IMG/VR virus record: IMGVR_UViG_3300028833_000063
Location: 64,001 to 128,000 of that record
From: a virus
Taxonomy: Duplodnaviria > Heunggongvirae > Uroviricota > Caudoviricetes
Reading direction: 5' to 3' (one strand)
DNA: 64,000 nucleotides
Every line of letters begins with the position of its first letter. Position 1 is the stretch's first letter. The translations under genes were made by a program, and so were the position numbers. Below, in pieces: positions 7,779 through 47,125 of this stretch. A model generated the notes under the pieces. It did no database searches. It had not been told where the DNA came from and saw only the letters and a list, made by a program, of their open reading frames with translations.

Positions 7779-10700
7779 TTAAATAAGGTTAGGATCTTTT
7801 TCCTTGGCATTGTGCACGACAACCGATTCTGCTACATATGTATCATATGGTTCTACATCAATATTATAAACATCTGTATCAGTTAAATCAGTGCGTTCTA
7901 TAATCTTTTCTACAATGACATTTGAGGAATCTGTAGTAACTAGAGTATCACCTTCCTGCAATATGGTTGTTCTAACATGATGCTCTAAGAATGCTGTAAT
8001 AGCGTCTAAAGATTTCCAGCCTTCTATAGTTAATACAGGATGCGATTTTGTAAGTGTTAAAGTACGGTTATTTGAAAGAACTAAATCTACTATATTAGAC
8101 TTGTGTTCGAATAGCTATACTGACACAACACTAGCTTCTACATAAGATTTAGTATTTTCATCATAGGCTTTTATTAAAGTATTTACTGTTAGCTCTTCAA
8201 TCGGTATTTCAGAACCATCAGCGAGCTAAGTTAATGTACCTTTAATAAAGCATCCATCAGTAGGCGCCTCTGTATTGCCCTTACAAGCGTCTGCGCAAAC
8301 AGTATGGCAAGTTATGCTGCAATTAGCAGAACAGTTATTAGTGCATGCTACAGAGCAGCCGCTACCGCACTATATACTACACTATGTTGTGCATTGATCC
8401 TTGCAGCTACCATAGCATCCACCTATACAACTGTTATAACAATTTGTCTCGCAATTAGCAGAGCAACTATTAGAGCATTTTATAGTACAACCTGCTGTGC
8501 AGTTACCATCGCAGTTACCCGAACAATTACTAGTACATTTGGCGCCACATTTACTTTTACAAGTACCTGTACAAGCTCCACCGCAAGTATCAACATAGGT
8601 AGTACCTGAACTGGTATCTTCACTAGGTGTATAAGCGGTTGCTTGCTCAACAATCTTCGCCTATAAAGCTTCCATCTATGTTAGATTGATTTTTACGCTA
8701 TTACCATTTACTTTGTATAAGGTAATCGTCCCTTCTTTAGTATCTATGGCCACATCATAAAAACAATTTTCATAATATGAACTACTGTAAAACTTTTTGT
8801 TGCTACCATAAATACCACAATTCATTATTTTGCTATTAGATAATGTACCATTGAGTAATCCATCAGAATTTAGATCAAAATTACCCATACGCCCGTTGTC
8901 TACGGTCATATATCCATCTGTCGCACGGACGCTAAATGTAACTGCGTGTGAACTCTTTTTAGTTAACCTGGTACCAGTTGCAATATCTTCTGCAGGCTAT
9001 AAAGAAGTAGCCTCAGAATAAATATGGTTGACATATAGAGTACCTAATTCATCCTCCTCAACAGCTTTTTTTAAATTTTTATACCACTACGCTGTAGGGC
9101 TAGTCGATGAATTATAAACTATAGGAGAATTATTATATAATACTTCATTGCCACCAGGGTCAGTAACATATACATCAGTATAAGTATATAAAACTTCAGG
9201 ATCACCAGTTTCGTCACTTTCTTTATTAAGAATTGCTTGCTTATAAACTGTTTTTGTATTTTTAGGACTAACGGCCACTAAGGTAGGCTAATATTGTAAA
9301 ATTTTTTTCTAACTAATATCATTATCAGTTACTTCATAAGGCGATTCAGTACTGTATACATAATATATATTACCTTCTGAGTCTTCGTATGCATAATATG
9401 TCTTTTTATCATATACTACCTTTAAGGCATCGGTAACATTACCATTGGCCAAGTAAATACCACTATTATATTTAATATGATTAAATGTCTCCTCACCATT
9501 AAGAAATATTAACTAATCTCCAGAGAGAGCGTTATCAGTAATATTCCATCCGCCTATACGTCCACCAGATACGGAAAATAACTTTCCTTTTATATATAAA
9601 CTTCCACCATTATATAAAAATCCTGTTGTTTCACTATTAGGCCATGTACTTAAATCAGTATCAGAAGCTCCTACTCCCGCGCCAACACCAAAAATAGTGG
9701 TGCCATCAGATGCAGTAGATAAATACATATTATTAGCCCGAATACTCAAGTTCTAATTGACAGTAACAGTAGAACCACTAACGGTCATTACTGGATTGCT
9801 ATTAAGGTCATAGAATCCCAATCCATCTCCATTTGCAAAGAAATATCCATACCCCGCGCTGCTAGCTTTAAAGGCACTAGCATTTACTACTCCATTGATA
9901 TACAATCCATTTGAATTCAATAATAAATTCACATTTGAGCCAGTAATAAGTGATGGGTCGGTGCCAACATCAATGCCATTCAAATTCTTACCAATTGCAA
10001 ATATCGTGTTACCTAATTCAGTTTTCCATGCGCCATTTGCATATGTATCTGTCTGTAACTTAAAGTTATTACTGTTAATATATAAGTTCGCCAATGAACC
10101 AATATCAATACCATCGCTAGCGATACGTACATAAGAGCCTTTCTCTACATTACTATTACGTAAGTCAGAAGTGGACTAAGTGACATTAATACTGCCGCTA
10201 CCAACAGTAATACCATTATTATTCATTAGAATAGCATTAATCTTATTTCCACTTCTGGTCGCAAAACCAATACTATTCTATGTAAAGAGCGCGCCGACAA
10301 GACCATCAGAATCGCCAGTTATGTTATAAGTATGGCTATTCCATTTAGAGCTATCCCAAGTAGTACCACTAGTATGAGCAGTTTTACATTTATAATACTT
10401 GTTTTTATACATAACAATATCGCCAATGGCATAAGGTACTGACGGACGCCATTCAAATCCCGTCATCTCTCCAGCAGCAATTATAAGATGTTCTTGATTC
10501 ATTTCAATTGCAGTGCCGGTATTTGCCTATGTAGAAGAATAACCTAAAATTAAATGCTAATCATTTAATTCTACAGAAGCGCCCTAAACACCAGTAGAAG
10601 AAGTAGGATCAAAAATACGACCGCTAAATAAACGAATTCCATTACCAGCTCCTATATATACTCCTTCTTCCGCGCTAATATCTACAACAGAAGTATTAGC

Positions 10701-13700
10701 ATAACTACCAGTAGAAGCCTATAAAGTAATCCTACTACTAGATTTCATCAGAATTGTTGAAGATCCCATTTCTATCTTATAAGGAGTAATAAGTACTTTA
10801 CTTGAACTTGCATCTCCTTTTTTACTGCTAACTTCATCATAGGAAGCAGCAACTAAATTGATTCCTCCATAATCAGACCCGCTAACCGTTGTGGAACCAA
10901 TATTAATCTAAGTACCTCCAATATTTACAGCTTTATTTCCGACAATATTTACATTATCCTTCGCGGATATTTTAATATCGCCACCGCTTCCTATATCAAT
11001 TTCATTATGAGCTAAAATATTAACCGTGCCTTTTACTGCATCAACTTCTAAGCTCGCGCCTGTAATTGCGGCTAGGGTGCCATCATATGTTCTTGTGAAG
11101 CCATTTATAGTAGAACTCCCATTCGCATCTGAAGTTGCGACGTAACGTCCAACTTCTTTCCCGTGTTCATCTAACTCAATCCAAACATCACCAATTTTAT
11201 AACTATCAGGCTTAGTCTAACTATAAGTTACCTTTGGAGTTAATTCCGCTGCAATATTATATACAAATCCAGATAATATTTCTGAATTTTTTAAAGCAAG
11301 AGAGCCAACTCGATTGATAAGTTTACCGGAATCACTAAGAATCTCTCCTGCTTCTGTGAATAATTCTTTTAATTTATTTTTGACTACTTGACTACTATCA
11401 AAATGACTATCAAGATAGGCATCTAGTATGTTAGTATTATTATAAATAGCATTTTCAACTGTGCTAGAAGTCAAAGACAAATTACCATTAGCTAATGCCG
11501 CAAGTACTCCACCATTGCGCTGCATCGCGGCAGTCTGTGCAACAATATTAGAAAATAAATCTTCAAACTTTGTAGTATAATTCTATACTTCTACCGTATC
11601 TTCCCAAAACTTATCGAGTTTCATCGTTACAGCAGAAATATATCCGCTTACGTTTTCAAACTTTAAATCATTATCGTTAATATGAACAATCTAGTTTAGA
11701 CGATTATAAGCGGTACGTATAAATTCTGGATTAAGTACACTTAACTCTAAATTATAAGATACTTTGGGCCTTGCATTCTCATTCATAACTTTTATTGCAT
11801 CCAAGTAAATAGCAATATCTAAGTTGGATAGAGAATATGCAATAGTGATGTTGTTTGTATCAGTATCATTTTGAATATTGGTTGGCGCAAAAATTACTTC
11901 CGGTTTTAAAGTCACATAGTACCCAATTCCTTGCGGCGTCAGACCAGTAGAACGATCGTCTGATACAGTATAATAATCCTCGTATTCCTTTAATAATCTA
12001 TTATTTCTAATAATAGTAACGCTATCTTTCTTTAGCTTTAAGGTATTGAAATAAAATCTAGGATACTCGCGCACCCATGTGTAGCTTTGAGGAGTAGGAT
12101 GTCCGGATACTTTTCTAGTACCTATAAATGGGCTAGGAGTAGTGCCGCCGACGGTCTTTATTGTAGTCCAAGCATTGGGTATAATATTGCCCTGGCTATC
12201 ATATTGCGGAAATCCAATAAAAGATTTTGCTTCATCACCGGCAGTATTGGTAATTTTCTTTATTTTCTCGGTATCTACATCCACTATTGAAACTGTATAT
12301 TTATTTGTCTTTATAAAATTAAATGTATCATTATCTAATTCTTTTACGCCAGTAACTATTAACACAGGTTTTCTAGTGCTTCCAGATCTAACCCATCCTA
12401 ACTCACAGCCACTACCAATTCTATAACTAAAATACATACTATTCTATAATGCTGCAATCCATTCATCAGCGTTTTCCACGCTCTGATTGTTTTTAAGTTT
12501 CTCTTGAATTTCAGCAATAGTAGCTACATTAGAGGGATTACAGTAAACAAAACAAAGGTCATCTAAATGATTTGATACCGCCGCTAGGCGGTCACTAATA
12601 TCTATAACCAAATGCTAATTCATGCTACCTTCTGCATCGGCAGTATAAATCAGTGGCTCTTCACCCTCATAATATTTATTACCATCCCACATAAACTTTA
12701 AATATGCGGTTTGTCCCTATGTTATATTACTATTATTATATCCTATTGTTAGGGAGTCAGAAAATAAATCACCATAGTCATGATAATTCTCTGGATTCCA
12801 ATATCCTTCTCGCAGCGCTGGCCCCATCATGCGCTCAAACTTACTTATTAGAGCCTCTTTTCGCGCAATTAGTTCTTTTTCCTAATATAATAGGTTGGGA
12901 CACGCATCAGAAACTAAAGTAGGATTATTCTTATCACCCTCTAGATAATAAGTAAAATTCTCTACTTCTGCTGTTGCTTTATTTAATTCTGCCTAATCGT
13001 AGGCAAGGCGCTGTTCCCAAACTGCCTATACTTTATCATAAGCCAATGTTGGATTATAATATCCTCGAGCCCATAGCGTATCTCCTTCGTGCAACTACGG
13101 ATTATTATCTGTTGTAATATGCTCTACACGAATTACGTTATGATATTCATCTTCCGCGAAATTGTACTATGTAACAATATTGCTAAAACTCGCTTTGGCT
13201 CCTGTAAAGTTAGAAGTTCTATATAAACGCAGCGTCCCTCTTTCTAAACCTTCCCAACGAATATTTATATAAAAACCACGTTCAGTAGAAGATAAAACAG
13301 TACATGGCGTACCTTCAATAGGAATAACATTTGTCCCGCCAGTCAAAGCCGCGCGAAGTTTCCCGGCTTCTTGTTCTCTTTCCTAATCTAATCCAATCGC
13401 ATTTTCATATGTAGTTTTTCTAGCTTTTGCTTCGGTAAGCTGATTTTCTACAATGCGAATGCGTTCTTGAATTGCGGCTAAAGTAGTATTCAATGTATGC
13501 ATCTACTTTTCATATTCAGGAATTTCAGCATATTGCTCGTCAGAAATGGCCTAAATATCATGTAGATAGTCGAAGTTTAACAGATAATCTTCACCGCTTT
13601 TATTAGCATCCAAATCCATAATAGTAACAAGATTAGAATCGTAATCTACGGCGCTAACATACATTTTGGTAGTTACATTACTACTGTCAACCGTGCGCGT

Positions 13701-14633
13701 TACTGCGGAAGAAGAGTAAGGATAAGTTAAATCTATATGACCTTTTGCGTCATATAAATAATTGTTATAATAAATAACATGTCGGCCAGTAATCTAATAA
13801 TTGTCATTATAATCATATTCATAACGACAAAAAACACCAAATTGTTCCGCGATTGTCTGAGTTATGTTATAAATATTGCTTTCTTTCGTTTCAATAATAC
13901 GGCACTTTTCGCGCGTATTTTGAATCGCGCGAGGAAGCAATTTATCATTAGATTTAAGCTCCCATGCGGTTACGTATTCATCTTCATATAATACGCTACT
14001 TAACTTTTTTTGACTAGAAGCCTAAGTACTAAATGAAGACCAATCCATTTCTATACTGTAATCCCAGTTAGTCTTCCATTTTTTCTTTCCGTCTGTGCCT
14101 TTCTCCTTAAATACTATATCATTCCAAAACTGTATATTATTGAGCGGCTATTCTCCGCTCATACCTTTTTGTTCCCATTCTTCTAAAGCATCAATATAAT
14201 TTTGCTCAGATAGAGAAATTTTATATCCTATTTTCCCTAACTCATGGAAAGCTAAACCTTCAGCTTTTACAGTCAAGTCCACATTATCGGACGAATGGTC
14301 ATAGGTGACTTCTGTTACTAAAAATTCAAAGACCTTTTCATCATCTTTTACACCCTTATTAAAAATAACTTTCAATTTATGCATATTAGCCTCAAGCGGC
14401 TAATTCTGCAAATGCAACCACATCGGATTATCTACGCGGTTTGCGCCAAGCCAATAAAACTTAGGAATAGAAAAAGTAAATTCCTACGTTCCATCATCAC
14501 GCAATACTACTTCTGGCTCCTAAATTTGTCCTTTACAATCCATATCGGCCCACTTCAGGACAGATAAAAACCTGTCCTGAAGTGTCCAAATAGAAACCTC
14601 ATAGCTGCGCACAGTGTTCATATTCTCAGCCAT
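7779..14633 (-). CDS. Large tail-tip/host-specificity protein (~2,284 aa with TAG as sense): tail N-terminus, CBM5/12-like module, CxxxC repeat, C-terminal Hint domain
   Basis: ATG 14633 with AGGAGG RBS. Nine supplied fragments (7779, 8676, 9087, 9513, 9753, 10278, 11217, 11691, 14148) share one frame. Lies after the TMP and Dit genes. Not every codon was checked for TAA/TGA. Confidence 0.8.
7809..8252 (-). other. Hint (intein-like) domain, 148 aa, no endonuclease
   Basis: CFIKGT N-terminus, TKSHPV block B, VYNIDV...YVAESVVVHN C-terminus; the +1 residue is Ala. Confidence 0.9.
8283..8585 (-). repeat. Coding repeat: 26 Cys at exactly every fourth residue
   Basis: CGGACTGTCKSKCGAKCTSNCSGNCDGNCTAGCTIKCSNSCSANCETNCYNSCIGGCYGSCKDQCTT*CSI*CGSGCSVACTNNCSANCSITCHTVCADAC, where * is TAG. 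Confidence 0.9.
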
Positions 14634-14655
14634 GAAAAATTCCTCCTTTTACCTC

Positions 14656-16539
14656 TTATAAATACATATTTTTAAATTCAAAATGTAAATCCTGTAACCC
14701 ATTAGCAACGTCGTGCGTAATCAAATAAGCATAATCAGGATGTGAACTAGTCCAAGCTTGAACTTGGTAATTCTTATCTAATACATTTCTTTCATCTAAA
14801 ATTAAGTAGTTACTCCGCACCATATCTCCAACATTTTCTTCTTGTGTTGTAGTATAATTTTCACCTGATACAGAGTTTTTAACCTATGTTTTTAATGAGG
14901 TACTGCCGCTAGTAATACTAACTTTACTAATATCACGATATGTAAATTTCCCTATTGCCAAACCAGTTTTACCATCAAAGGTAAATTGGGCAGAGAACGG
15001 TTCATCATTATTATCGCATAATAGAGTAGACATGCCTTCTTTTAAATCCGTGCGCACACTTGTGCTTTGAATAGTGCTATTACCGCCTGTACTATCATAC
15101 TTATTAATGAGCATGTTTGCCCATGCGCGAACAACCGGATGCCTAATCGTATCACGAATAGCTTCACGTACATTCAGCCAAGCACCACCAACTGCCATAA
15201 TATCAGTATTACTAAATATTTCTAATACCTAATTATAACTTAGCCAGAAAGTTGGTAATGTAAACTTGAATGTACGAGTTCCAACAGACTTAAGAGTTAT
15301 TGTATTATATTTATTTCCACTTCCAGATGAATGATTATTCAAAGGAGTAATAATATAATAAGCACCACTCGTTCCCGCCGCGCGCATTTGAGGTATAAGT
15401 GAGAAGCGTAATTTTACAGGAGATGGAGCTGTCCCGGCATAGTATAAGTTTGCAGGAGTCTTATATGGTAAACTAATTCCCTCCACGGAAGTACCTGCGC
15501 CAGAAAGCTCTGCGCCGCCGATTTTCCCGCCAACCTAATTTCCATTGTTCTTATACGAAATTACCGCACCTCTATAATAACAGGTAACATTCTGAGTAGA
15601 AGTTGTTCCGGTAGACGCATTTGTAACAGCACGAGGCTCAACGGTAGTAAAATATGCAGAACGTAACTAAGGTGTAATCGCTTCTGAGCTTATTGCCTAA
15701 TTATACTATGCTTCTGTAATTTCTACAGGAATGCGTGACCATACTTCATAACTTACAGAAGCATAGACTCCACCGCCTAGGAATACATTAATACGAGTTG
15801 TACTTCCTAATGGGATATGATCTTCATATATAATTTTAAGAGCATCAGGAGATTCCCTAACACGAACAACTTTCCCATTAGCGTCTACCCAATTATCTTC
15901 ATAATATCCTTCTAGCGTATTCTATGTACCAAGTACATTTTTTATAGAATACCAGAAAGGTTCATCCATTACAAATTCAAGATCAATTTCACCACGGTAG
16001 ATGGTTGTATAAGTGGAATAAGTTGTTGTTGTCACGGTTTCCCCTGCGTTAGTATCACCAACTGCAAATGGCACTTCTACTTCCTGTTTAAAGGCAAGTA
16101 AATGTAGCCGCGGCGGGGCCGCTATTCGCGCCATAATCGCGCGATTAGGATGCTCTGCCATTATTAGTTCTCGTATTGAACCGGCCCTAAACCAGCGCTT
16201 GAAATCATCCAATTCTACTTGAGTCATAGCATCAGTTGCTAATGTTATACTCAAAGTATTCTAATGAAAATAAGTTCCCCAGTAAAATTGCCCCTAAATT
16301 GTATCATATACAGAAGTTAAGTCTTCAAATTCTGCATATCCTTCACGTTCCATACGGTCACCGCTTGTATATGCTAATACATTGAAATCTTCAATATTTT
16401 TCCCGCCATAGGAAAAACTAATAAAAGAACGTTGCATGAAGGGCAAGTAAGATTGCCCATCATGCGTTGCTTGATAAACCTGGGTACGAGGTGACGTCGA
16501 AGACGCCACCTCATTACCCACTAATTTTGCTATTGCCAT
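14656..16539 (-). CDS. Distal tail (Dit)-like protein, 627 aa with TAG as sense
   Basis: Fragments 16294, 15922, 15229 and 14884 share a frame; ends FKNMYL-TAA; lies between the TMP and tail-tip genes. Confidence 0.75.
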
Positions 16540-16546
16540 ACTCCTT

Positions 16547-19500
16547 TTACCTCCTTATACTATTTGTTGCGCCTGTTTTACGAGCAATTCTCATCATCTC
16601 GTTTAGAGCTTGTTCGCCTGCGCGACGAGCATCATAGTCATTAGCAATTTGTTTAACTTCCATATTGAGTTCAACCTTCTCGATAACAGTAGAGTTGTCT
16701 TCAATAGGAGCTATACCGTTAACGGAATTATTAATTCCATCGTAGCCCTCGTTGTAGGACTTAAGTAGAGAGATGAGAGAATTTGGACGGTTAGAGAGAA
16801 TATTGTCACGGAGAACTTTGGTTTGAGAAGCAGTAAAGACTGTTTCAGTACCACGTTCACCAAGTTCGTAGATACCATGATTTACGTAACCGCCAGAAGC
16901 TGCTTTAGTTCCTCCAGCTGGTTTTTTCAGCCAATCTAAAACGGTACTTGCCGCATTCGCCATCGCACTTATACCGGTATTTATTAGAGATGTTACAGGG
17001 CTATTAGATATCTCTTTTTTGGAATAATCTGATACTGGATTGGGTTTATTAGATATATCCATTGGGTTTGTGCTAATAGAATTAGAATTATTGGCATTAG
17101 TAGAATTTGAAGGTTTCGCGGTTGAGCCACCTGAACTATTAGTTGGAGCAACTTTTTCCTAATAATCACACTGAGTGCAATAAATAAAACCATTACTGCC
17201 ATTCACATTAAGAGAGTGTACCTATAAACTGCCATATTCTTTATGCCCATCTGCATATATTTTTACATGTTTATGTCCACTCTTACCTTGTGATTCATTG
17301 TATTCTCGTTTAACGGCTCCGTGCCCCGACTTATTAGTTTTACCGGAGTCACCTCCACCACCGCCAGAACCTCCGGATGCTGGTGCAGCCGTTGTTGGCG
17401 CTGCCGCTGGTGCAGCAGTCTATTCCGCAGCCTTCTTAGCAGCTTCCGCCGCAGCTTTATCGGCAGCATACTTAGCTCTCGCACTCGCGGAAACCTTTGT
17501 TAAATCTCCATGCTCTTGATACTCAGAATAGAATAAATCCTTATAGGTACCGTTCTTATCATAGTTATTACCGAATTCCTTCTTCATGGCTTCATCGAAT
17601 ATCCTATAATCATTATCTTTCATTTGTTCACGATTCATAGTGACCATTAAAGCGACATTTTCTTTAATATCTTTCGCGGTAACACCATTCTCACCGATAC
17701 CAGTTTTTGCGGCGGCTAAATCTTCTCTATAAGAAGTCCACTGCTCGGCAGCGAATAGTTGTTCATTAATAGCTTTCTTACTAGCTAATTCCGAACTAGC
17801 CCAAAATTCAGAATTTCCGTTTGTAATGAAAGAAACAATCTTCTCAGAGGATTCCTGCATTACTGCGTAGACGTTACCCCACAGCAATCCATATTCTTTC
17901 TAATATTCTAATGTTTCTGTCATTATCTCGATCTAAGAATCCATACGCTCGATTTCTAGGTCAGAAGCGGCCTAAATAGCATCAATCTGCTATTGCTATA
18001 AATTAAAGTATCTATCACGTTCAGAAGAGTCAATTTCGGAGCGGAGATTAGCGATATCTTGCGCACTACTTCCAGACCGCTGTAGAATTGCTAAACGGCG
18101 CTTCTACTAATTAAGTGAGTTATCCGTTTCTTGATTCTCATACATCTGACGCTCATTATTAAGCGCATCAGTTAAGCCATCAATATACTTCTAAGTAGAT
18201 TCCTCTAACTTATCACGCTCATCTTGCAATGTATCAATTTCACGCTAGCGCATATCTACGATAGCATCAAGTACGGCATCTTCGACCTCCATCTGATTGT
18301 CTCGAATTTCTTCGAATATATCATTTTGGTCAGCTTGAAGTTTTAGTAAATCATCTTCGCCCTCTTTAATGGAATCCCATAAGCTTTGAGTAGTTTCCTT
18401 ATATTCATCAATCCTATCCCAGAAAGCCTTTGTGGCATCACTATAGAAAGATTGACGTTCTTCATCGGTAACTTTCCCATCGTTATCTCCATCCATCTTA
18501 ATTTCGCCGCCATCGTTATACTTCATATAGTCGCCATAACCTGCAGCAATAAGTCTATTATACTTCTCTTCATCAGTATAATTGGCTTTTCCATAGGAAT
18601 CGAAACCAGCTAAATCAGTTAGCCATTCCATTGCTCCTTTCTAGAAGAACATTTGTCCTTCATTATTAAAACTAATGAGCTTTCCGAATGGACTCTTTTC
18701 TAGAGCTTCAACTCTCTAATCATAATATGCCTAGCGACTTAGATTAAGTCGCTCTTGCGCATCAATCTAATCACGTAATGCTTCAAGAGAACGTTTCTGA
18801 CTAGCATAATAATGATTACCATTTGCATTCCAGTCAGACTACAACTTAGAACGTAAGGTTTCTTCATGTGTAATTTCTTTCTCAAGCTAGGCAATCTTCT
18901 GCATTAGGTTATACCAGCGTTCAACTGTATCAATCCAAATAGAAGGATCAACGACTTTGGATTTGTCTCCTCCACCGCCGCCTCCACCGCCACCACCGGC
19001 GCCGGCGAGATCAGATATAGAAGCGCCCTTGAGAGATTCCCACATTGCGCGAAGTTGTTTTAAAGCAGCTAATGCCGCGGATGCAGATGCCATTGCAGGG
19101 CCAGTGTTACCAGTTGCGAATGCGACTGCATTCTTTTCAGAGGTAACGGCTTTGCCGCGGCCATTGGACATTCCTTTCTTTAGAAGTTGCTCGGTTTGTA
19201 AATGGTTGAAAACAATTGCATCATCTGCAAGATCAACCATTTCTGCACCATTTTGTCCTGCGACAAAATAGCGCCCGTTGGAGACTACAAGTTCGGGGCC
19301 GAGTTCACCCATAAGGGTTCCTTTAGCTTTAGCAAGTCCGATATTACCTGTTGCACCAAATCCGTCAATAGGGAAAGGTACTTTTCCACGGCTGCCATCA
19401 TCCGTACCCATGCCACCAGGATATTCTCTTCCGCCACTTTTGCCACTAGTTGTATAATTAGTATGAACATTTATGGTTATATTCTTAGAGACAACAGAAC

Positions 19501-32602: not shown

Positions 32603-32633
32603 TTAATTCCATCTCCTTTTACCACAAAATAAA

Positions 32634-32664: not shown

Positions 32665-32665
32665 A

Positions 32666-33541: not shown

Positions 33542-33559
33542 GGTTTTCACCTACCTAAT

Positions 33560-33596
33560 AAAAACCCAGGGACTCCGAAGAGTCCCTGGGATTTGT
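33560..33596 (-). terminator. Intrinsic terminator after the major tail gene
   Basis: cccagggact-ccgaag-agtccctggg hairpin. Confidence 0.8.
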
Positions 33597-33603
33597 TAGT
33601 TAA

Positions 33604-34560: not shown

Positions 34561-34577
34561 AAAAGTTACCTCCTAAA

Positions 34578-35357: not shown

Positions 35358-35850
35358 TGATTTTATACACCATTGAATAACCGCCGATCCAAGGAGTCAA
35401 TGTTAATGGATCTGCACGATAAAATTGCAACGTACCAATACCTGCCATTTTCGCGCCATTAAACATCTCATCTATTTCTTGCATAATAAGATATGGCCGC
35501 AAAGACTAATCATCCATAAGCCATTCCTCATAAGGGCAAGCAATATCAAACCGGACAGTAGATATTTTAAATTCTGGATTTAACTAATTAACTACAAATC
35601 CATCAAATAGAGCAGTTACATAAGACATTTTTTCAGTACTATCATCAAATATCTTAGGAACAATTAAAATTTGCTTATTAATTAAATCTGCTCCATCCAC
35701 TGGAGGATATTTTTTTTCATTAAAAGGATCTCTAACCTAATATTTTAATAGGCGGCAAAGCCGCGGATTTGACATTAATTTATTAGCGATTTTAAATGTA
35801 TTAAGTCCCATCACAGCGAATCGGCGCTGAGTTGGCTGTTCTAATGCCAT
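35344..35850 (-). CDS. Putative tail-completion/terminator protein (168 aa, TAG read-throughs)
   Basis: MALEQPTQRRFAVMG...LRPYLIMQEIDEMFNG...YKINEFN-TGA; function inferred from position. Confidence 0.65.
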
Positions 35851-35860
35851 TTTATTCACC

Positions 35861-37240: not shown

Positions 37241-37562
37241 CTGGAACCTCTAATCCATCCACTAAGTGCATACTTTCAAATATTGTACGCCTAAAGTGTT
37301 CATATGTTAAATAGCGCAAGGAATTGATTTTTCCTATTAATGCCCACCAATTAATACTATTCGCGCCAAGTCCTATCAATTCTATTGTAATAGAATCAAG
37401 AAACTTAAGCCATTCGCCACCTTTTTCGCGCTCACATAAAAGGCCATATAACCGACCTTTTAATTTATTTAAATAACCATCAAAAGTTTCGTTAGATATA
37501 TTTCTGTTTTCCGGCCAATCGCTTAAAGATTGCGGCTGGACTATGGTTACGCGATCTATCAT
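37227..37562 (-). CDS. Hypothetical protein in the head-tail region
   Basis: Intact ORF (KLKGRLYGLLCEREK...); start uncertain because it overlaps the upstream gene. Confidence 0.6.
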   Translation of the reverse strand: MIDRVTIVQPQSLSDWPENRNISNETFDGYLNKLKGRLYGLLCEREKGGEWLKFLDSITIELIGLGANSINWWALIGKINSLRYLTYEHFRRTIFESMHLVDGLEVPDELS

Positions 37563-37974
37563 ATCGTCCCTCTGCTTTATGAATCTCTAGCGCGACTTGA
37601 GATTCAAGTTTATTTAATTTATCAAGGTGGTTAGCTTGAGAATAATCACTGTCAACATATAACTAGCGTATATTTTCCCAACTAGCAATACAACGTTTAA
37701 CCCATTCATGCTTCATATAAAGCGCAAGCATCTATATTTCTGCATTGGTTAAATCCTCTTTAAACTGCATTACTGTAATGGGATTATTACCTTCTGACTG
37801 TTCTAACTCTTCCATTTCTAAACTAATACGTGGATATTTAAAGCGTTCAATGGCCATCTTGAGAAGCTCTTGCCAATCTCGTTCAACAATGGCGAGCTCT
37901 TCCTCCAATGTCCATTCATCTGCGGTTATCCGCGCCAAAAAAGCGTCATAAACTTTTAAGAAAGGGGTCGCCAT
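37492..37974 (-). CDS. Putative head-tail adaptor (160 aa, TAG read-throughs)
   Basis: ORF 37732..37974 extends through TAG to TAA at 37492; function inferred from position. Confidence 0.65.
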
Positions 37975-37979
37975 TCAAA

Positions 37980-38423
37980 TCACTTCTCTTCTGCCTGATG
38001 TTTCATATTAATGGCATTAATAATATCAACATCGCAGTATTTCTTAATTAGACTTACGAAAGCAGGTGCTGTAATTCCCTTATCTACTGCAATCTTTACA
38101 ACAGAATCCTTTTCAGATTCAGTAGCATTAGGAATAAATTTTGCAAAACCAGTGATATCATTATTGTCAAACATAGCCGCAATATCGGTAGCGCTCACTA
38201 CAGTGCCTACTTCTTCAACCTGTTCATCCTTCGCAATGCCTTCAACCTTAATGAAGTGTCCATTAACGAGAGCCATAAAGCCAGGATCAAAAGTCATTTC
38301 TTCATAATCTTCCTGTGATACAGGAACGGCACGTCCGGGTGTTAATTCACGACTCCACTTAATATTTGGGAAAGATAGCGATACGGTTGCCGTGCCAACA
38401 TTAGTTAATGTAATTTTACTCAT
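37980..38423 (-). CDS. Hypothetical virion/head-associated protein
   Basis: Intact 147-aa ORF with AGGAGG RBS directly after the capsid gene and its terminator. Confidence 0.75.
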   Translation of the reverse strand: MSKITLTNVGTATVSLSFPNIKWSRELTPGRAVPVSQEDYEEMTFDPGFMALVNGHFIKVEGIAKDEQVEEVGTVVSATDIAAMFDNNDITGFAKFIPNATESEKDSVVKIAVDKGITAPAFVSLIKKYCDVDIINAINMKHQAEEK

Positions 38424-38454
38424 AATAAATTCCTCCTTTTATCTCCAAAAGAAA

Positions 38455-38490
38455 AAATGGGGTGGGTGAGCAAATCACCCACCCCAGTGG
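38455..38490 (-). terminator. Intrinsic terminator after the major capsid gene
   Basis: tggggtgggtga-gcaaa-tcacccacccca hairpin. Confidence 0.8.
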
Positions 38491-38501
38491 TTATCAATCA
38501 A

Positions 38502-39620
38502 TTACTGATTGTTGTTAGTATTGTCATCGAACTTCGGAACTAGACCTTGGTTGTAAGCTTTCCAGCCGCTACCTTCATCTAGTGCCGCATTGTAATAAAT
38601 TCCCCAGTAGTTGGGCATAGTGAACATGCCGACACCAACCTTTACATATCCCTGTAGGACGAAAGAATTGTCGCCTTCATGGTCATCCCATTCACGGAAA
38701 TAGGGAGATCCTTCGAAAGCCATCTTAATTAGCTTTTCCTTACCAGCTGGTAGAACATAAGCGAAAGATGGATTCATAACAGTCTTAGAGTTAGTTTCAT
38801 CGGTAAAGGACTGAGGCATAACAACAATTGGTACACCCTGGAACTTGCCGATATATCCGCGTTCACGAATATCAATCATATCCTGATCAGAAATCTTTCC
38901 ACCAACCCAGCTTGGATTAGCATTGCTATAAACGATAGCATTAACCATCTCAGCAGCAAACTCAGGCGTGCAGTAGATGATTGGAGAGCCGTAAGCCGCA
39001 ACAGTGTTGCAGAGCTTCTTCATAGCAACAGGATTAAAGGTATTAGCTGCAACCTTGTTGCGAGAAGGACGACCAGCGGCATTCCAAGAAGCAAGTAGTA
39101 CTTCCTGAACCATCTCAAATAGACGGTCAACAATACCTTCCTGAATTACTTCATAAATATCGGTCATGCTTTCTAGACCATCGAGATAACGCTCGAAGTC
39201 TACATATCCAGCGCCACCAATGGCCTGAATGTAAACATCGAAACGATCGCGGTCTAGTCTAAAGGTCTCGTAGTTACCAGACTCGGTAGCACGAGTAACA
39301 AACTGCTTGCCCCTCTGCTTGCCGCGAGTTACACGGAACTCAGGACGAGTGCCTTGCTCGAAATGTATAGTCTCAACGAACATATCTAGAGCAGACTGTA
39401 CACTCTGAGGTAGAACTTCTTCTAGATTCTGCTCAAGTAGTTCAAAAATGTCTTCCTTGTTACGATTGAAGACGTGACGATTAAAATGACGACCATCCTT
39501 GGTCATTAGCTTAGCTAGCTCATCACGAAGAGCAGCTTCATAATCATAATCGGCGGCTGCGAACTCAGCAGGAACTTTACGTCCAAATACGCCGTTCATT
39601 AAAATATGTAGATTATCCAT
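38502..39620 (-). CDS. Major capsid protein
   Basis: 372-aa intact ORF, AGGAGGT RBS, highly biased codons, followed by a terminator, after portal and protease; no TAG. Confidence 0.85.
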   Translation of the reverse strand: MDNLHILMNGVFGRKVPAEFAAADYDYEAALRDELAKLMTKDGRHFNRHVFNRNKEDIFELLEQNLEEVLPQSVQSALDMFVETIHFEQGTRPEFRVTRGKQRGKQFVTRATESGNYETFRLDRDRFDVYIQAIGGAGYVDFERYLDGLESMTDIYEVIQEGIVDRLFEMVQEVLLASWNAAGRPSRNKVAANTFNPVAMKKLCNTVAAYGSPIIYCTPEFAAEMVNAIVYSNANPSWVGGKISDQDMIDIRERGYIGKFQGVPIVVMPQSFTDETNSKTVMNPSFAYVLPAGKEKLIKMAFEGSPYFREWDDHEGDNSFVLQGYVKVGVGMFTMPNYWGIYYNAALDEGSGWKAYNQGLVPKFDDNTNNNQ

Positions 39621-39637
39621 AACGTTCGCACCTCCTA

Positions 39638-40288
39638 TTAAATTCTAATAATCTGATACTTAACGCCAAGACCGCCATTAGGAATGGTATAGAACTTTAC
39701 GATCTTGCCATAGATACCAGCTTGTGGAATATTCTTAACAATTTCTGGAACTGCATTAGCAGCAGAAACAGTTTCGTTCTGTCCGACAGCCTTAATAGCA
39801 ACATATAGAGGAGTAGTATCAATTGCCTTTAGAGCGTCTAATAGTACTTGTTCTGCAGTCTTGCCATTAGCGGCGGGGAAAGTAGTGTCATTATACTGTA
39901 AGCAGTTAGTAGTTACAGTGTCGCCAACTCCTAGTAAGCCTACACGTGGATAATCGCCAGCAACCTTGCGGCCAAACCTCTGTAGACCATAGTGTTCACG
40001 ATCATATTCTTTTTCAGTTGTGTATACAATACCAATTGGGGCGGAAGTTGCAGCAGTTGGTGGATTAATAGCACCAGCAGCCTTATCTCCTACGACCCAC
40101 ATACCATTCTCACAAGGAGTTGCCTTTGTAAAGGCTGCTCCTAGAGGAGTCTGGGAAACTACCATGCCAGTCTTTGGGAAAGCTACTTGATTTAGTTCAA
40201 GGCTGGCATATAATTTTTCGTCTGGATCACGATACTTATCTACCATATCGCCAACTGGATTGGTGATAGGAAATCTATTCATACCCAT
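39638..40288 (-). CDS. Capsid decoration/minor head protein (216 aa)
   Basis: Start reassigned to ATG 40288 behind AGGAGG; lies between scaffold and MCP; no TAG. Confidence 0.7.
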   Translation of the reverse strand: MGMNRFPITNPVGDMVDKYRDPDEKLYASLELNQVAFPKTGMVVSQTPLGAAFTKATPCENGMWVVGDKAAGAINPPTAATSAPIGIVYTTEKEYDREHYGLQRFGRKVAGDYPRVGLLGVGDTVTTNCLQYNDTTFPAANGKTAEQVLLDALKAIDTTPLYVAIKAVGQNETVSAANAVPEIVKNIPQAGIYGKIVKFYTIPNGGLGVKYQIIRI

Positions 40289-40301
40289 AACATATTCCTC
40301 C

Positions 40302-41588
40302 TTAATTCTTACGATACTTCTCAATGAGAAGTGCAAATTCATTTACTGCAGGTTCTGGCTGTGGAATTACATTAATTGTATTATCTTCAACCATCATCTG
40401 CTTATTAGCAAAGCTAATGGCGAGTTTACTTTCTAGCTCGCTATAAGTAAAGTTAGAAACTTCTGCGCGAACTTTAGCAATTTCTTCTTCGTCAATAACT
40501 TTTTCATATTTTTCAATTAACTGATTTTTCTTCTCTTCTTCAATCGCAGCTTGTGCAGCTTCATACTGAGCAATAGAACTTTCTAATTCAGTAATGCGAT
40601 TATTTGCGGTTTCGTTTGCGGCGGTAGCATCGGCAAGCGCCTACTCCAACTCAGCAATACGACTCTGAGCATTTTCATAATTGGTGCTTAGCTCAGCATT
40701 AGCATTTGTTAATTCAGTAATAGAGTTCTGAAGAGCTTCAAAATCAGTTGGCTCATCCGCAGGTTCGCCTGCTGGCTCTGCTAAAGCCGGATCATCTACT
40801 AAAGGTAGCTCTGGTTCAATTGCAGATTCTGTATCAGGCGCGTTGTCCTCAACGGGCTGCTCGACATCTGTAACTTGAGCTACAGGCTCTTCTGCGGGAG
40901 TGCCTAGGTTATTTTCAAAATTATCCATAGGTTGTTCTCCTCCCTTTGGTTGTTTTTCCGTCTCTTCGACTAATTCCTTCAAGCCGGATAAAAGTGAAGA
41001 GAACTTTTCATATTGAGATGCATATTTATCATCGTCCTTAGAGAAGAATGTAGATACAGAAAAACAAGGTTCATGTTCTCCTATAATGCATAGCCCCATT
41101 ATAGAAGCTTTGGTATAGACGAAATATTCGTTATCTTCAATATTTGCCCAGTCTCCTTCGATACTATCCCTATCTAATTCCATTGATTGATGCTATCCAA
41201 CAACTAATTTGGCTTCATCGAAATATTTGTTAAAAATTACTACAGAGAAAACAGCGTATTCGCGCTCAATTCCATCTGTATCAGTAAAAGGCTGCCACCC
41301 TTCAAATGATTCTACATAGCCATAAGCGCTAGCTAGTAGTGGACCCGTGTGCCCTGCCCAGCTTTTGGATTCTGGGTCAAAAAATCCAACAACTGGAGTA
41401 TTGCCCATGGTCGCGCTGGCAATAAGTTGTTCTGCGATTTCATCCGTAATATAAGAACCATTACGATTCCCATATTTTGTGAAAACACCAACCTTTAAGC
41501 GGCCTAGTTCTGGGTTACTACTAGAAATTGGCACTGTAGGAGAAGCGATGACAACGCTATCAAAATAAATAGGTATTTGTCTATCCAT
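40302..41588 (-). CDS. Prohead protease/scaffold (428 aa, TAG read-throughs)
   Basis: Fragments 41193 and 40641 in frame; SIMGLCIIGEHEPCF protease-like core, then an acidic Pro-rich linker and a coiled coil. Confidence 0.75.
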
Positions 41589-41599
41589 CTTAATTCTCC

Positions 41600-43123
41600 T
41601 TAACCCATGGCCGCAATATTGGCCTGAGTTTTCTCAGATTTCTCTTCATCGGGTAACTCTGGACGGCCACCTTGATTGTTCACAGTTACCGAAGTTTTTT
41701 TACTTCCACCGCCACTACCTGAATTTTCGCCACCAGGAGTAGTATAGGCAGACTATAATGGTATCATCTTATCCGCCATGTGAAGGAAGTCATTTTCAAA
41801 ATTCATTAGACTTAACTAAGCTAATTGGTCAATGCCGCTAGCAACGCCAGCGCGCATCTTAGAATAGCCATACTACGCACCCTAGAAATACATACTCTGG
41901 TAATCTTTAATATTAAACATAGTAGTGGGTAAGATTTCAAAGCCAAACTATAGCCCTGTACGGGAAAACCTATGATTAATTTGAAATCTTATCCACGTAC
42001 TATATACGTTTAGATAACCTTTCATAAGACTTTCATCCTTCTTTATGCTATACGCGAGAGTAGAACTATTCTCAGCGTTAAACAGAATTGAGCCTCTTCC
42101 TAGAGCATTCCAAGCATTCTTTGCATACTTATCAATACGATCAGCAGACTGAGATGCCGCAGAGGAATCCTAAAGATTCTCTAATGTAGTTTCTCCAAAA
42201 GTAGTCAATACATCTACAGTATCTAAGTCTTTGAGCATTTCCGCTACTCCTGCGTGGATATCTTCAACTTCCTCTAATTCAAATACTAATTCGCCGTTGG
42301 AATCAATCGGCATGCGCTAAATTAGTAATTTGTATAGTTCGTTTTCATCCCGCTTTTCTTCGCGGCCAACTGCGTCTTTAAGTTTACGTAATTGAGGTAT
42401 TGCGGCAATGAGTAATGGTGTCTGGTCATCAGCAAAACAAAAATTTATGCCGCCGTCTGCGGATGAAATCATAATCCATGGATCACTTGTTTTCTTGTCT
42501 TTCCAATTTTTCCACGCCTTTTGTACAACCTCTGGAAAGGTTAAAAGTATGCGCGCTCTTTCTTTATCATCAGAAAACTTACGTTCAAAATAGGTTACGT
42601 TAAATTCAAGAATATTTAAATTATTATAATCCTTGAATCTCGTGCGGCAATATTCTAATGGGAGATCCTAAATAGCAAATTTACTCCCAACCTGACGCAG
42701 AATACCATTATACATACCATTAATTAACCATGCTTTTGTAATACGAGTTAAAGTATTGCGGATATCTAAATCGTCTACAAAAGTACAAGCATTATAGAAT
42801 GCTTTAACAATCTAAGCCTTAGAACCCTTGCCTTCCTCAAAGATAGGGGTGACAATTGTATCATAGTAAGGTAAGGTGGCTAGGTAATCAATATTCTCAC
42901 GATATTCACTATTTGTACGATAATAATAGCGAGATAATTGTCGTAGTGAATCTAAATCGCCAGAACGAATTATTTGTTCAATTTCTTCTAAAGAAAAATC
43001 GTGCTACCCTACTGAATTGATACGGCTATTCGCGCCATAGCGACTAACACGATAGCTATCAATTGGTACTGGCATAATGCGATTTTGTTTAGCAAAATTG
43101 AAATATGGTTTGAAAGAACTCAT
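41600..43123 (-). CDS. Portal protein (507 aa, TAG read-throughs)
   Basis: ATG 43123 to TAA 41600 is a whole number of codons; lies between TerL and the protease; missed entirely by the code-11 track. Confidence 0.75.
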
Positions 43124-43128
43124 AAACC

Positions 43129-44919
43129 TCACCCCCTACTTTTAGGACTGAAGAAAGCATATTGATTTATCTTTTTCTTCCGTTTTTTAAAAATTTCTTT
43201 ATCTTCATAGTATTTAATTCTATATAAAGAATATTCTAATGCAGAAAAACGGTCTTTTTCAATTGATCTAGAAATTCTTTCAACCTTAAATTTATTTTCG
43301 ACTCCCGTCGGCTTTAAACGTAAATTATTAAGCTCGTCCATCAGCCGAGAAGTCATTTCATATGGCATCAAAAATATGCGTCTATCATAAGGCGTCATTT
43401 TAGCACCTTTCTTCGTTTTCATTAATTTTTCTTTAACAATTCTTTCATGTGCTAAAAATGATACTGATCCAGTATTGATTGCAGAAAGAAACGCAGAATG
43501 GATTTCATCTTCATTTGAAGCGCTAGCTTTTATGTCATATAAAATTGCATTATACGCCGGAACAGGAGAATTTTGTTCCTCTCTTAACTCTGGCGGTAAA
43601 TGGTTTTCGTTGTTAAAGGTGAAATATGCCGGGAACTACTCGCCCGTGTGCGAATCATAAGATGGTAATGCCATCGCATCCATTAAACCAATACCTGGAC
43701 CGTTACCGTCAATAACGACTTCGCGCGGATTGTATAATGAAATTAATTTTTTGATACGCGGCGCCTACTCAGTAATAAAGTTTTCACCGTTAATAACTTC
43801 GGTATATACAACATCTTTCTTAAAGCGCTAGTCATTAGGTAGTACTTTAATAACCATAATAGCAGTATTGGCATGATATCTACCTACGTCAATTCCTATT
43901 TCATACCATGCGTCAGGACATAACTCACTATAATATGCATGTCGTTCACATTTAAGTAAAGAACGATGCTTATTCAAGCGGCGTGAATCTAGCCATGCTT
44001 CTGAGCTATTACCAGTCCATATTGAAAGATTTTCGCGCGCGAATGCATCTTCATTAACAGAGGTGGAATATCTCTAGTCTTCCATGGTCGCTCTATCTAT
44101 AAGCCCATAATGTACGGGAATTTCGTAACTGAGGCCCCAACAGAAGAACTCCTTCGGCCGCAATACTGCATTTACCGCTATCTCAATAAGTCGTGAATAC
44201 ATATAGACAGTACGGTCACTAGCAGTTGTAATAAAGGTTTGCGGCGAGCTTGGCTCATCTACATTTAAAGATCCATCGGGCTCACGGCGCTTAATGTTAA
44301 GCTGCGGCCATAGTACTTCTGTATAGGCTTCTTCGGATATAAGCGCACACTCCTCCAATATACCAGCAGTCGCACGCAATCCACGGGACGTATCTTTTGA
44401 TACAACAGTAATTTGACTACCATTCTTAAAATTAACTTCATAATAGTTAGTACTGGATTTAATACCGGTTTTCCCGTCATCAGTGCGAGTAGTAAGTTCT
44501 TTTTCGAGCAAAGGCCAATGGGTAAAGAACTAAGCGAACTTATCGCGTGCAATATTAATAACTGTACCCTTAACTTCAGATGCAATCATTACGCTAGACT
44601 TTGGCAGCAGAATAGCACGTACTAGCGCGCATAGATATGCAGTGAAGGATTTAGATGTAGCACGAGTGCCAGTCCAAAAATGATACCTGTAGCGCATTGA
44701 GGCGCGAAGAGCTATGCGCTAAAATGGCATGAGGTGAAAGTGCTATGCATCTTCAACCAACTGTACTGCATCTAAAAACAAGTCTGGATATAATATCCAA
44801 AGATTTAAATATTTAGTGAATAGTTCTTGATTGCGGTCTAAGAATTCCTTAGTAAGGGTAACGCCCTTTTCAATTGGTATGCCATCTCTTAGCAGGGGTT
44901 CCTATAAGTTTTCATTCAT
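43129..44919 (-). CDS. terL: Terminase large subunit (596 aa, TAG read-throughs)
   Basis: Deviant Walker A GTRATSKSF, Walker B GILEEC, nuclease GIDVG, IDGNGPG and KDRFSALEY; fragments 44074 and 43129 in frame. Confidence 0.9.
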
Positions 44920-45856
44920 CCTATCCCCCCTCCTATAGTTCTGCGGCTAATTCTCCTTCACCTTCGTACTCTATATCTGCGGTTTCATCAAATTCTACTT
45001 TTTCATTTTCAATTTCTTCAAGACGTTCAGTCATATTATAGCGTGCACGTTTATCTTCAACTTGTTCTGCAAAGTTCCCTTCATTAATGACTAGCCGCTT
45101 CAAATAGTTTTGAATATTTTCCATCATAAAGTCAATGGAGTCTTGTGGTTCGGTATGCCAATTTGGATGCCATCCTTTCTTACCATAATACACCATCAAC
45201 TCTCCAACGGATTCAAAGTCGGCCGCAGATTTAGCATTAGAAGCTTCAAAATGATAGGTTTTTACAATGTCGTCTGCCTATTTCATCATTTTGGAAACAT
45301 CAATGTTTTGGCGCAGCCCCTACTTAATATGTAACTAAAGCTCACAGAAATCTCTTGCTTTTTCTTGTAGGATTGGGGTCGATACATTTTGGGTTGCAAC
45401 GATTTTATTATAAAAATCTTCAAGCCAAAGAAGTTCGTTTGGCTCGTATTCGGCACCCCATACCTTTTTCAAATGGCGCATTTGCCCTTCAGAAATAGCT
45501 TTAATCTCATCATTAATTGTGCCTTCTTTTCGCGCGATTTCCCATCTTGTATTTTCATCCTACCATTTTAAGCCTTCATAATGGTCATCATATAGTAAGT
45601 TAAAGTAGGCCGTAAATGTATGGTCTTTATGCTACTCATATAGCTGCGTCCATTTATTAAGATCAAATGGGAGGTCGAGCCAGCGTAGTACGCGGTCAAC
45701 TTCACCTAGGTTGTCTTGCGGCGTTGTAGCTTCAAGGCAAGAAGTACAATATAGGGAACGATGGCCCGGGAAAAAGCGTGAAGATGTTGCCGCGAACGCA
45801 GTAATTGGTTTTTCTTGTTTGCAGCGCAAACATTTACGTAGTTTTTTGTCTTCCAT
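44912..45856 (-). CDS. Zn-finger protein upstream of TerL, possible small terminase subunit (314 aa, TAG read-throughs)
   Basis: CLRC...CTSC N-terminus; joins 45632..45856 and 44933..45199; overlaps the TerL start. Confidence 0.65.
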
Positions 45857-47125
45857 CTACTTTCAGCACCTCCCCTTTTTCAATGCGAAGTTGACGTTCA
45901 CATTCACGGCATCGTGATTGAAAGCCATCTTTTCGGCCTGAATTTTTAGTAAAAAAGAGTGGATGGCGTGGCAAAACGCGGCCGCATCGTTTGCAGGCTT
46001 TACGTTGGCTGGCAGGCGTTTCGCATAATATTCGGTGTTTTGCGGCGGTTCGCGCAATTTCTTTTGGAATATCGTTGGCGATGATTGTGCTTAAATAAAA
46101 TGTGTTGTAAGTAAAACCAAATTCCTGCATTAGTTGATTACGTATGTCTTCGCGCGGCGTTTGCTGCATTACTTTATCTACAATGGCGCGGCGAATTGGA
46201 GTTAGCGGGGTCATTTGTACATAACGTTCTAAGTCCCAAATAAGGCAGCGCCCGTATGTATCCAGTTTATCCTTTAGCTGTTCCTTTAGCGGCAAATAGT
46301 TATTCATAAGTGCATAAACATGTTTAGGGTTCTCCCAGTCAAAGTTATGCTAACAGACTACCCATTTTACCTCCAACTAATCCCCCTCCCCTCGCGTTTC
46401 ATAGTCTTCTAGGTTGCGTGAAATGCGGGTTGTATAGGAGTGGGATACACGCTATTCCCAGTCTGCGTAAGGAATCCAATATGCGGCCGCCCCGTCCCAA
46501 TCATAAAATTGTGTCTTTGGGTGGTCAAGTTTCTGGAAATGAAGCTGCGGCTTATAAACATCTTTTAAATAATATTGCGTTCTTTTCATATCAATTAGGT
46601 TATGTTTAAGACGATAAAGGCGATAGTCGTCTTCAAAAAGGGGAAAGTTTTCGTCTGGCGGCAACTTGCCTTGTAAAATATGGATCCATTTGTCAAAGTA
46701 ATCAAGGCGTTCCCATAGTTCTACCATGCCTGGAATATCGGAGTCGCCCGGGTCAATAAGTTCGCCAGTTTTTTTATCGTATTTGGGACGCCGAATTGTA
46801 GGAATAGACTTTTTATATACGTCGCGCTTGTATGCACTTCTAAATTCTTGTTCGTCGGTGGCTGGATTTTCAGCATCTCATCAAGTGATACCACATAGTC
46901 ATCGGAAGTTTTAAAGGAGTTATAGCGTTTGGAGTTATCATAGACTTCGCCTCTGCGCAAAGAGGAAAGCCCGTTTTCATCTTTACCGTATAGAATGTAG
47001 GTGGCCATTTGCTCTATATCGGTTTCGGATGGGTCGTGATCCAAAGTGTCTAAAATCCCTTCAACTAGCTTTAGACGATCGGTATCTCTTTCAATGGTGT
47101 AATCTAATGAATATGGTTTCTTCAT
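45834..47125 (-). CDS. Putative DNA-binding protein (~430 aa) with C-terminal Zn finger; needs a -1 frameshift near 46868 plus TAG read-through
   Basis: 46721..47125 joins the frame of 46452..46727 and 45834..46307 after a 1-nt shift (LDEML/ENPATDEQ...); CKRC...CREC at the C-terminus. Confidence 0.6.

Follow-up and report, generated by a model that had tools for sequence, protein, structure and literature searches.

Whether the codon TAG is a stop signal or an amino acid codon is the question raised by positions 7779-47125 of the stretch of DNA analysed here (the window, 64,000 nucleotides), which represents bases 64001-128000 of one 188,358-bp virus record in IMG/VR (IMGVR_UViG_3300028833_000063). 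The record has a GC content of 38%, is circularly closed (the final 100 bases recur at positions 27-127, a 127-bp end overlap) and is rated 100% complete by CheckV. Under the standard bacterial code (code 11), the window holds 27 open reading frames (ORFs) of at least 150 amino acids, and positions 7779-47125 break up into fragments. The original prediction for this DNA was that TAG in this region had been reassigned to an amino acid, probably glutamine. The analyses described below uphold that prediction, and the window very probably covers the virion-gene module, together with flanking DNA, of a tailed phage with genetic code 15, whose complete genome measures 188 kb and which stems from a community of rumen type.

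When TAG is read as sense, the fragments on the minus strand merge into long ORFs of 2284 amino acids (39 TAG), 627 amino acids (9 TAG), 5351 amino acids (127 TAG), 510 amino acids (the portal, 10 TAG) and 630 amino acids (the terminase large subunit, TerL, 11 TAG). ORFs of at least 100 amino acids, chosen greedily, cover 0.35 of the region with translation table 11 and 0.96 with table 15, a comparison that had been proposed along with the prediction. By the same measure, reading TGA as sense gives a coverage of 0.39 and reading TAA as sense gives 0.62, while for the whole genome the values are 0.53 with code 11 and 0.84 with TAG as sense. The coding frames of the minus-strand genes contain 224 TAG, 0 TAA and 0 TGA among 12,190 codons, and the other two frames of the same genes contain 577 TAG, 1034 TAA and 875 TGA; the genome as a whole has 607 in-frame TAG codons. 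In the 2284-amino acid ORF, where cysteine recurs at every fourth residue from 2017 to 2117, the TAG codons at 8382-84 and 8370-72 fall on residues 2084 and 2088 and keep the CxxxC register, just as had been predicted. Thus, conserved genes of this phage are open only through TAG read-through and TAA and TGA still act as stops, which is the defining feature of a code 15 phage. A decaying prophage, a group of pseudogenes or an assembly error could also produce fragmented code-11 ORFs, and nothing else speaks for damage of this kind. Because TAG is the only stop codon found in frame, decay and assembly error are ruled out; moreover, about 70 related contigs, drawn from many samples, have TAG in these genes too, frequently at identical sites, and the proteins align end to end with their homologues in a record that is complete and overlaps at its ends. 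We regard the probability of such an artefact as negligible.

The predicted extent of the recoding needs correction. As expected, the genes for terminase, portal, protease, neck and tape measure proteins are open only with TAG as sense, and most genes of the block are recoded, but four of them (38502-39620, 33604-34560, 39638-40342 and 37980-38423) have no TAG at all. The predicted region was also too narrow, since recoding reaches the plus-strand genes 4216-5250 (11 TAG) and 6585-7334 (8 TAG). The contexts EEQ*RER and EA*AK (the asterisk is TAG), which had been cited in favor of glutamine, do exist, but at 4687-4743 on the plus strand, inside the gene 4216-5250 and outside the predicted region. 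The labels "Dit" and "tail tip" given to two genes reflect gene order, with no match to a family or to a PDB sequence: the 627-codon gene in the Dit position had no match in Pfam, PHROG or PDB sequence searches, and PDB sequence searches with the capsid candidate and with the N-terminus of the tail-tip gene gave no match. The capsid, Dit and tail-tip labels are therefore positional.

Across the genome, TAG is unevenly distributed. Its share of the glutamine codons is 38% in the virion block and 33% at 143-183 kb, another block of late appearance; it is 19% at 111-143 kb and 10% in the replication block at 8.5-64 kb, the low shares being inflated by over-extended ORF starts. TAG is concentrated in the packaging, virion, resolvase and homing-endonuclease genes, and is nearly absent from the nucleotide-metabolism genes and from putative early promoter cassettes. 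All 30 genomic copies of the palindrome TAGATGTAWTACATCTA lie at genome 113358-129881 (49.4-64 kb of the window and just beyond), and each precedes a sigma-70-like promoter and a small gene; they are confined to TAG-poor DNA, with none of the 30 in recoded blocks. The mosaic described for code 15 phages, in which early and replication genes remain compatible with the standard code and late genes are recoded, is present here with exceptions. Within the virion block, the TAG-rich genes encode low-copy proteins (tape measure, tail tip, portal and terminase), and TAG is missing from the capsid candidate, from the gene that probably encodes the tail tube and from the one in the scaffold position. 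The probability that the capsid candidate would contain no TAG is 8e-4, and 39 of 40 relatives likewise lack TAG in this gene; in the relatives, TerL and the portal carry up to 12 and 14 TAG codons, respectively. Because the virion candidates of highest copy number (capsid, tail tube and scaffold) avoid TAG and the low-copy ones are rich in it, we infer that TAG is decoded less well than CAA or CAG, a somewhat costly codon that is excluded from those genes which are translated most heavily.

The same avoidance of TAG by high-copy virion genes would be expected if TAG were mainly a stop codon that merely leaks, with the in-frame TAG codons acting as attenuators and no true reassignment; in addition, no function that disables release factor 1 was found. 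However, two genes, the first of them essential, carry 127 and 39 TAG codons, and their yield would be negligible unless about 98% or more of the ribosomes passed each codon, which amounts to reassignment. For the 127-TAG gene, a read-through of about 98-99% per codon is needed (0.99^127 = 0.28, compared with 0.95^127 = 0.0015), and therefore release factor 1 would have to be almost fully outcompeted or disabled. Furthermore, no gene needs to end in TAG, and ORFs with a TAG close to their end number a handful at most. TAG as a terminator is thus rare at most, and a leaky stop is very unlikely to explain the data.

Three independent tests on sequences support the reading of TAG as glutamine, interchangeable with CAA and CAG. 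First, cultured phages that use the standard code (Geobacillus E3, Enterococcus VRE9_4, Alicyclobacillus KKP_3916, Bacillus PK-3 and Thrax1, and Brevibacillus Sundance) have glutamine opposite the TAG codons at TerL 101 (8 of 8 phages, in the motif FQR), TerL 419 (7 of 8), portal 155 (6 of 7) and portal 272 (6 of 7). Second, an exhaustive profile search with the portal returned 131 full-length homologues, which were clustered at 50% identity, and the log-odds summed over the 10 portal TAG sites were +16.2 bits for glutamine, -3.2 for serine and -4.1 for histidine, with the remaining residues lower (leucine -19.8, tyrosine -28.2). Third, among 80 IMG/VR relatives, most with a TerL 64-90% identical to that of this phage and two at about 45%, the codons facing its TAGs are CAA (423), TAG (251) and CAG (162), followed by GAA (76). 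Only CAA, CAG and TAG were seen at TerL 66, 281 and 384 and at portal 321 and 420 in these relatives. The substitution profile of TAG (Q 0.40, TAG 0.17, E 0.08, K 0.07, S 0.05) mirrors the profiles of CAA and CAG, and in the opposite direction the codons of this phage that most often face a TAG in the relatives are TAG, CAA and CAG. Since the conserved sites, the portal log-odds and the codon swaps all agree, TAG most likely encodes glutamine. Neither an alignment of the TAG positions to varied residues or gene ends nor frequent in-frame TAA or TGA, either of which would have spoken against the prediction, was observed.

Reassignment of TAG calls attention to the tRNA that reads it. In agreement with the prediction, the tRNA search of the 64-kb window found no tRNA, and the window has no release-factor gene, the release-factor domain being absent from a six-frame search of the genome. 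The prediction had also suggested searching the rest of the genome, and there a tRNA(CUA) was found, but no genes for a release factor or for glutaminyl-tRNA synthetase (GlnRS). The 22 tRNAs of the genome, which form arrays at 183.5-188 kb and 0.2-8.6 kb, include a tRNA-Gln(UUG) and the sole tRNA(CUA), at genome 183528-183615, 55 kb past the end of the window. The tRNA(CUA) occupies a syntenic place in relatives, where the terminal CCA is encoded and fixes a 7-bp acceptor stem with A1-U72, G2-C71, the discriminator G73 and G10. The E. coli GlnRS identity set includes a weak 1-72 pair, G2-C71, G73 and G10, and all of these glutamine-type marks are present in the sequence of the tRNA(CUA). An 8-bp acceptor stem or a tRNA-Sec-like fold, as in the ARAGORN drawing and the weak Rfam match, was rejected, since the CCA-encoding relatives show a 7-bp stem starting from A1. 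An origin of the suppressor as a recent copy of the phage tRNA-Gln(UUG) found no support, the identity of 42/72 being below that to several other tRNAs.

The shape of this tRNA also bears on whether TAG could be a sense codon for another amino acid, namely serine, leucine, tyrosine or pyrrolysine. Its 19-nt variable region is class-II-like, ARAGORN labels it tRNA-Pyl (on the anticodon alone), and serine ranks second in the portal profile. On the other hand, the log-odds given above favor glutamine over serine, leucine and tyrosine by wide differences, glutamine is invariant at sites in TerL and the portal, and the TAG codons swap with CAA and CAG and not with serine, leucine or tyrosine codons. 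The tRNA itself has the discriminator G73, and none of the 93 Ser, Leu and Tyr tRNAs from these loci contains the loop motif of its variable arm, U[CU]UGA. Decoding of the pyrrolysine or selenocysteine type, with a special tRNA and a sparse, context-dependent codon, does not fit 607 in-frame TAG codons at which the residue is glutamine. The alignments and codon swaps reject the serine, leucine, tyrosine or pyrrolysine identity suggested by the tRNA shape, and we consider another amino acid highly improbable.

Several observations weigh against a complete reassignment of TAG to glutamine by this phage. The tRNA(CUA) is unlike a normal tRNA-Gln in having the 19-nt, class-II-like variable region; with the arm removed, it is identical to the tRNA-Gln(UUG) of the phage at 42 of 72 positions, and its best Rfam match is tRNA-Sec, with a sub-threshold score of 27.7 bits (cut-off 47). 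The six-frame genome search for release factor and GlnRS, in which control genomes were positive, found no release-factor domain (PF00472) and no GlnRS/GluRS catalytic domain (PF00749), and no other code-switch gene was found. For this phage, the glutamine identity of TAG is read from DNA sequence. Host hints are limited to related contigs binned in rumen Bacillota metagenome-assembled genomes (the bins include one implausible case, Nanosyncoccus) and to cultured TerL relatives that infect Bacillota. Also, TAG is not strictly a late codon, as a 969-codon gene with 23 TAG lies in the replication block. Finally, three ORFs have a lone TAG 4-7 codons before TAA or TGA (genome 54496-56100, and window 52062-52469 and 52699-53109 on the minus strand), and TAG might still end a few genes, perhaps early in infection.

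A feature of the variable arm may be relevant to how the tRNA(CUA) is charged. These tRNAs have CUCUAAA as their main anticodon loop and CUCUGAA or UUCUGAG in the loop of the arm (UUCUGAG in this phage); that is, the arm loop is the anticodon loop with a G at position 36, which gives the glutamine anticodon CUG. With a covariance model in which the arm was unconstrained, CUGA was found in the arm-hairpin loop of 8 of 8 long tRNA(CUA) genes, one of them in the phage phAss-1. A scan of IMG/VR for long tRNAs with the CUCUAAA loop yielded 29 unique genes, 13 with the exact YUCUGAR in the arm and 10 more with CUG there, although three of the genes with CUG are 84 nt long and short-armed, and CUG is possibly coincidental in them. 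Two of the 6 genes without CUG carry UUG, the other glutamine anticodon, in the arm loop. The arm stems vary among phages by paired changes (GCC/GGC, GCG/CGC, CCA/UGG, AUC/GAU and CCUG/CAGG). In all, more than 70 phage tRNA(CUA) genes share the design. No paper connecting a variable arm to stop-codon recoding in phages turned up in a literature search. We tentatively put forward, as a possibility that we hold to be rather doubtful, that the code switch rests on a tRNA design new to the literature searched, with the variable arm forming a second anticodon-type hairpin that shows the glutamine anticodon and lets the glutamine-charging pathway of the host accept a CUA tRNA, together with a TAG density inverse to protein copy number and a phage function that neutralises release factor 1 well enough for 127 TAG codons to be passed in one gene. 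Two other unusual tRNA genes were noted in passing: a tRNA-Leu(CAA)-like gene at genome 187729-187860 whose anticodon loop holds an insertion of 47-50 nt (ARAGORN with introns allowed; match to the Rfam tRNA model, 43 bits), and a tRNA with a four-base anticodon (UAAA) called by ARAGORN at 11479-11552 of a related recoded phage, L016 (IMGVR_UViG_3300021387_001034).

How recoding would proceed during infection can be outlined from the late-gene regulatory model of recoded phages (bioRxiv 10.1101/2021.08.26.457843). As in that published model, the host would read TAG as stop, and early genes would be translatable at once. The phage tRNA(CUA) would then be made and charged with glutamine by the host enzyme, and the TAG-bearing late genes could now be completed. 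Release factor 1 would be almost fully outcompeted or disabled. A host that itself reads TAG as glutamine, which the phage merely matches with no code switch in infection, would account for the lack of a release-factor or GlnRS gene in the phage. Against a recoded host, the phage has its own tRNA(CUA), its early and metabolic genes avoid TAG, sister phages of the same family use the standard code, and the survey cited above predicts standard-code Firmicutes and Bacteroidetes hosts. It is very unlikely that the host is recoded.

The relatives show that recoding varies within the family. Searches of IMG/VR, ENA and Logan assemblies returned 531 TerL homologues, on contigs of up to 190 kb; among described phages, phAss-1 (NCBI "Caudoviricetes code 15 clade") comes closest, with a TerL identity of about 32%. 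In G013, a complete recoded relative, the tRNA(CUA) is short. Two relatives (G017 and G020, partly assembled) have equal coverage under both codes and are of standard code, with no tRNA(CUA) in the assembled parts, and the TerL, portal and protease genes of members L057, L058, L060-L062, L074, L080 and L085 contain no TAG. On a quick TerL tree, standard-code lineages are scattered among recoded ones, with at least 4 changes of state (provisional), which suggests that recoding has been gained or lost repeatedly in the family. Mixed codes in one family match the published finding of both codes within one clade (bioRxiv 10.1101/2021.08.26.457843). The tRNA region of the phage also contains two Rfam motifs, cow-rumen-3 at genome 187192-187337 (130 bits) and cow-rumen-4 at 183087-183150 (65.6 bits), the latter preceding the tRNA(CUA) by about 380 nt.

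Table 1. Genes and other features of the window, with the number of in-frame TAG codons. Where several genes share a line, values are in the order listed.
Feature	Position	Strand	Codons	In-frame TAG	Basis or remark
NrdD and NrdG, anaerobic ribonucleotide reductase	714..3631	+		0 among 37 Gln codons	
Coiled coil and GIY-YIG homing endonuclease	4216..5250	+		11	Holds EA*AK and EEQ*RER
dUTPase	5794..6588	+		0	
RuvC-like Holliday junction resolvase	6585..7334	+		8	phrog_827, 1e-19
Tail-tip or fibre-like gene	7779..14633	-	2284	39	CBM_5_12 domain, CxxxC run, C-terminal Hint domain; "tail tip" by position
Gene in Dit position	14656..16539	-	627	9	Position
Giant tape-measure-like gene	16547..32602	-	5351	127	PF10145 PhageMin_Tail, 1.8e-27; stop TAA; open only with TAG as sense
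Virion structural protein, paralogue of gene 33604..34560	32666..33550	-		6	phrog_2729, 5e-16
Probable major tail protein (tail tube candidate)	33604..34560	-	318	0 among 8 Gln codons	phrog_2729, 1.8e-50; function suggested by place upstream of the tape measure gene
Three neck or head-tail genes	34578..37303	-	259/171/480	7/3/5	phrog_4051, phrog_6123, phrog_31155
Two small virion-module genes	37492..38423	-	160/147	2/0	phrog_3853
Major-capsid candidate	38502..39620	-	372	0 among 15 Gln codons (13 CAG)	phrog_4088; syntenic with genes of phAss-1 and phage E3; function putative
Gene in scaffold position	39638..40342	-	234	0	Position
Prohead-protease homologue	40302..41588	-	428	2	Aligns to annotated prohead protease of Bacillus phage Thrax1
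Portal	41600..43132	-	510	10	phrog_2739, 5e-66
Terminase large subunit	43129..44916	-	595 from likely start	8 (11 in longest ORF, to 45021)	Homologues
Terminase small subunit homologue (YonG-like)	44912..45856	-	314	7	Aligns to Thrax1 terS, Sundance YonG-like gene and E3 GP12
Two further ORFs, the first sigma-factor-like or Zn-ribbon-like	45834..47125	-	297/176	3/1	
TAG-poor block of small putative early cassettes	49358..64000	.			Each opened by TAGATGTAWTACATCTA, then sigma-70-like promoter

Some features of the genes listed in Table 1 were noted in their own right. The 5351-codon ORF has one tape-measure domain; if all of it served as tape measure at 1.5 A per residue, the tail would be about 0.8 micrometre long. 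At the C-terminal end of the tail-tip-like protein (window 7779-8585, minus strand), about 26 CxxxC units precede a Hint/intein-like domain (PF14890, 1.7e-9). Reading TAG as sense also yields a spurious 381-amino acid ORF antisense to the capsid candidate (38457-39602, 15 TAG).

Large standard-code siphoviruses of Bacillota, such as Geobacillus virus E3, Enterococcus EF1 and VRE9, Bacillus Thrax1 and PBC2, Brevibacillus Sundance, and those with the SPbeta-like YonF/YonG packaging genes, have homologous terS, TerL, portal and protease genes in the same order as this phage. Unlike this phage, they have no in-frame TAG, and their TerL identity to it is 28-34%.

A tRNA with a CUA anticodon that inserts glutamine is also known from E. 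coli supE (glnV44), in which a tRNA-Gln has its anticodon CUG changed to CUA; it is an ordinary 75-nt class I tRNA and a weak suppressor. The phage tRNA(CUA) resembles supE in its anticodon, its predicted amino acid, the weak 1-72 pair, G2-C71 and G73. Unlike supE, it has the added 19-nt arm with the second, glutamine-anticodon-like loop UUCUGAG and is not close to the phage tRNA-Gln. With this variable region and an identity of 42/72, it is not a class I tRNA-Gln body in which only the anticodon has been changed.

The phage phAss-1 (OQ749652; PMC10607447) is like this phage in having a large siphovirus-type genome, TAG in TerL, the portal and the tape measure gene, and no dedicated aminoacyl-tRNA synthetase, and its host is predicted to belong to Bacillota. 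It has tRNA-Sup(CUA) genes, one of which, 91 nt in length, shares the long-arm design. The phAss-1 genome, however, is 136 kb, comes from human gut and has three suppressor tRNAs, whereas the phage described here has 188 kb, is of rumen type and has one. Members of the proposed genus Phassvirus share 80-86% nucleotide identity; because the two phages have only about 32% identity in TerL and 29% in the portal, they do not belong to the same genus, and this phage falls outside Phassvirus.

Code 15 phages of gut and rumen include crAss-like phages, Lak phages and the Firmicutes-infecting clades of Borges et al. (bioRxiv 10.1101/2021.08.26.457843), and one report (PMC9523058) gives proof by metaproteomics that TAG is translated as glutamine in two crAss-like phages. 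Recoding itself is thus already known, and this phage is a further code 15 phage. Like the others, it has TAG in structural and late genes, a low code-11 coding density that is restored by reading TAG as sense, early and replication genes that are TAG-free, close relatives of standard code within its clade, and its own tRNA(CUA), such a phage-encoded suppressor being common but not universal in code 15 phages. It differs from them in its lineage (SPbeta/E3-type TerL), in the 127 TAG codons of one ORF, in a capsid candidate that is consistently TAG-free and in the lack of a release-factor or aminoacyl-tRNA synthetase gene. Standard-code gene calling fragments most of its virion genes, and table 15 is needed to annotate this genome and about 100 relatives in IMG/VR. 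The 127 TAG codons in one gene, the TAG-free capsid candidate and the lack of a release-factor or synthetase gene sharpen the question of how such phages escape release factor 1 and charge their suppressor, and a family with recoded and standard-code members at 64-70% TerL identity offers a natural series on how a stop becomes a sense codon. The most noteworthy features of this phage are single genes with an extreme number of TAG codons, the conserved avoidance of TAG in the capsid candidate, a family of mixed codes, and a suppressor tRNA with a spare glutamine-anticodon arm.

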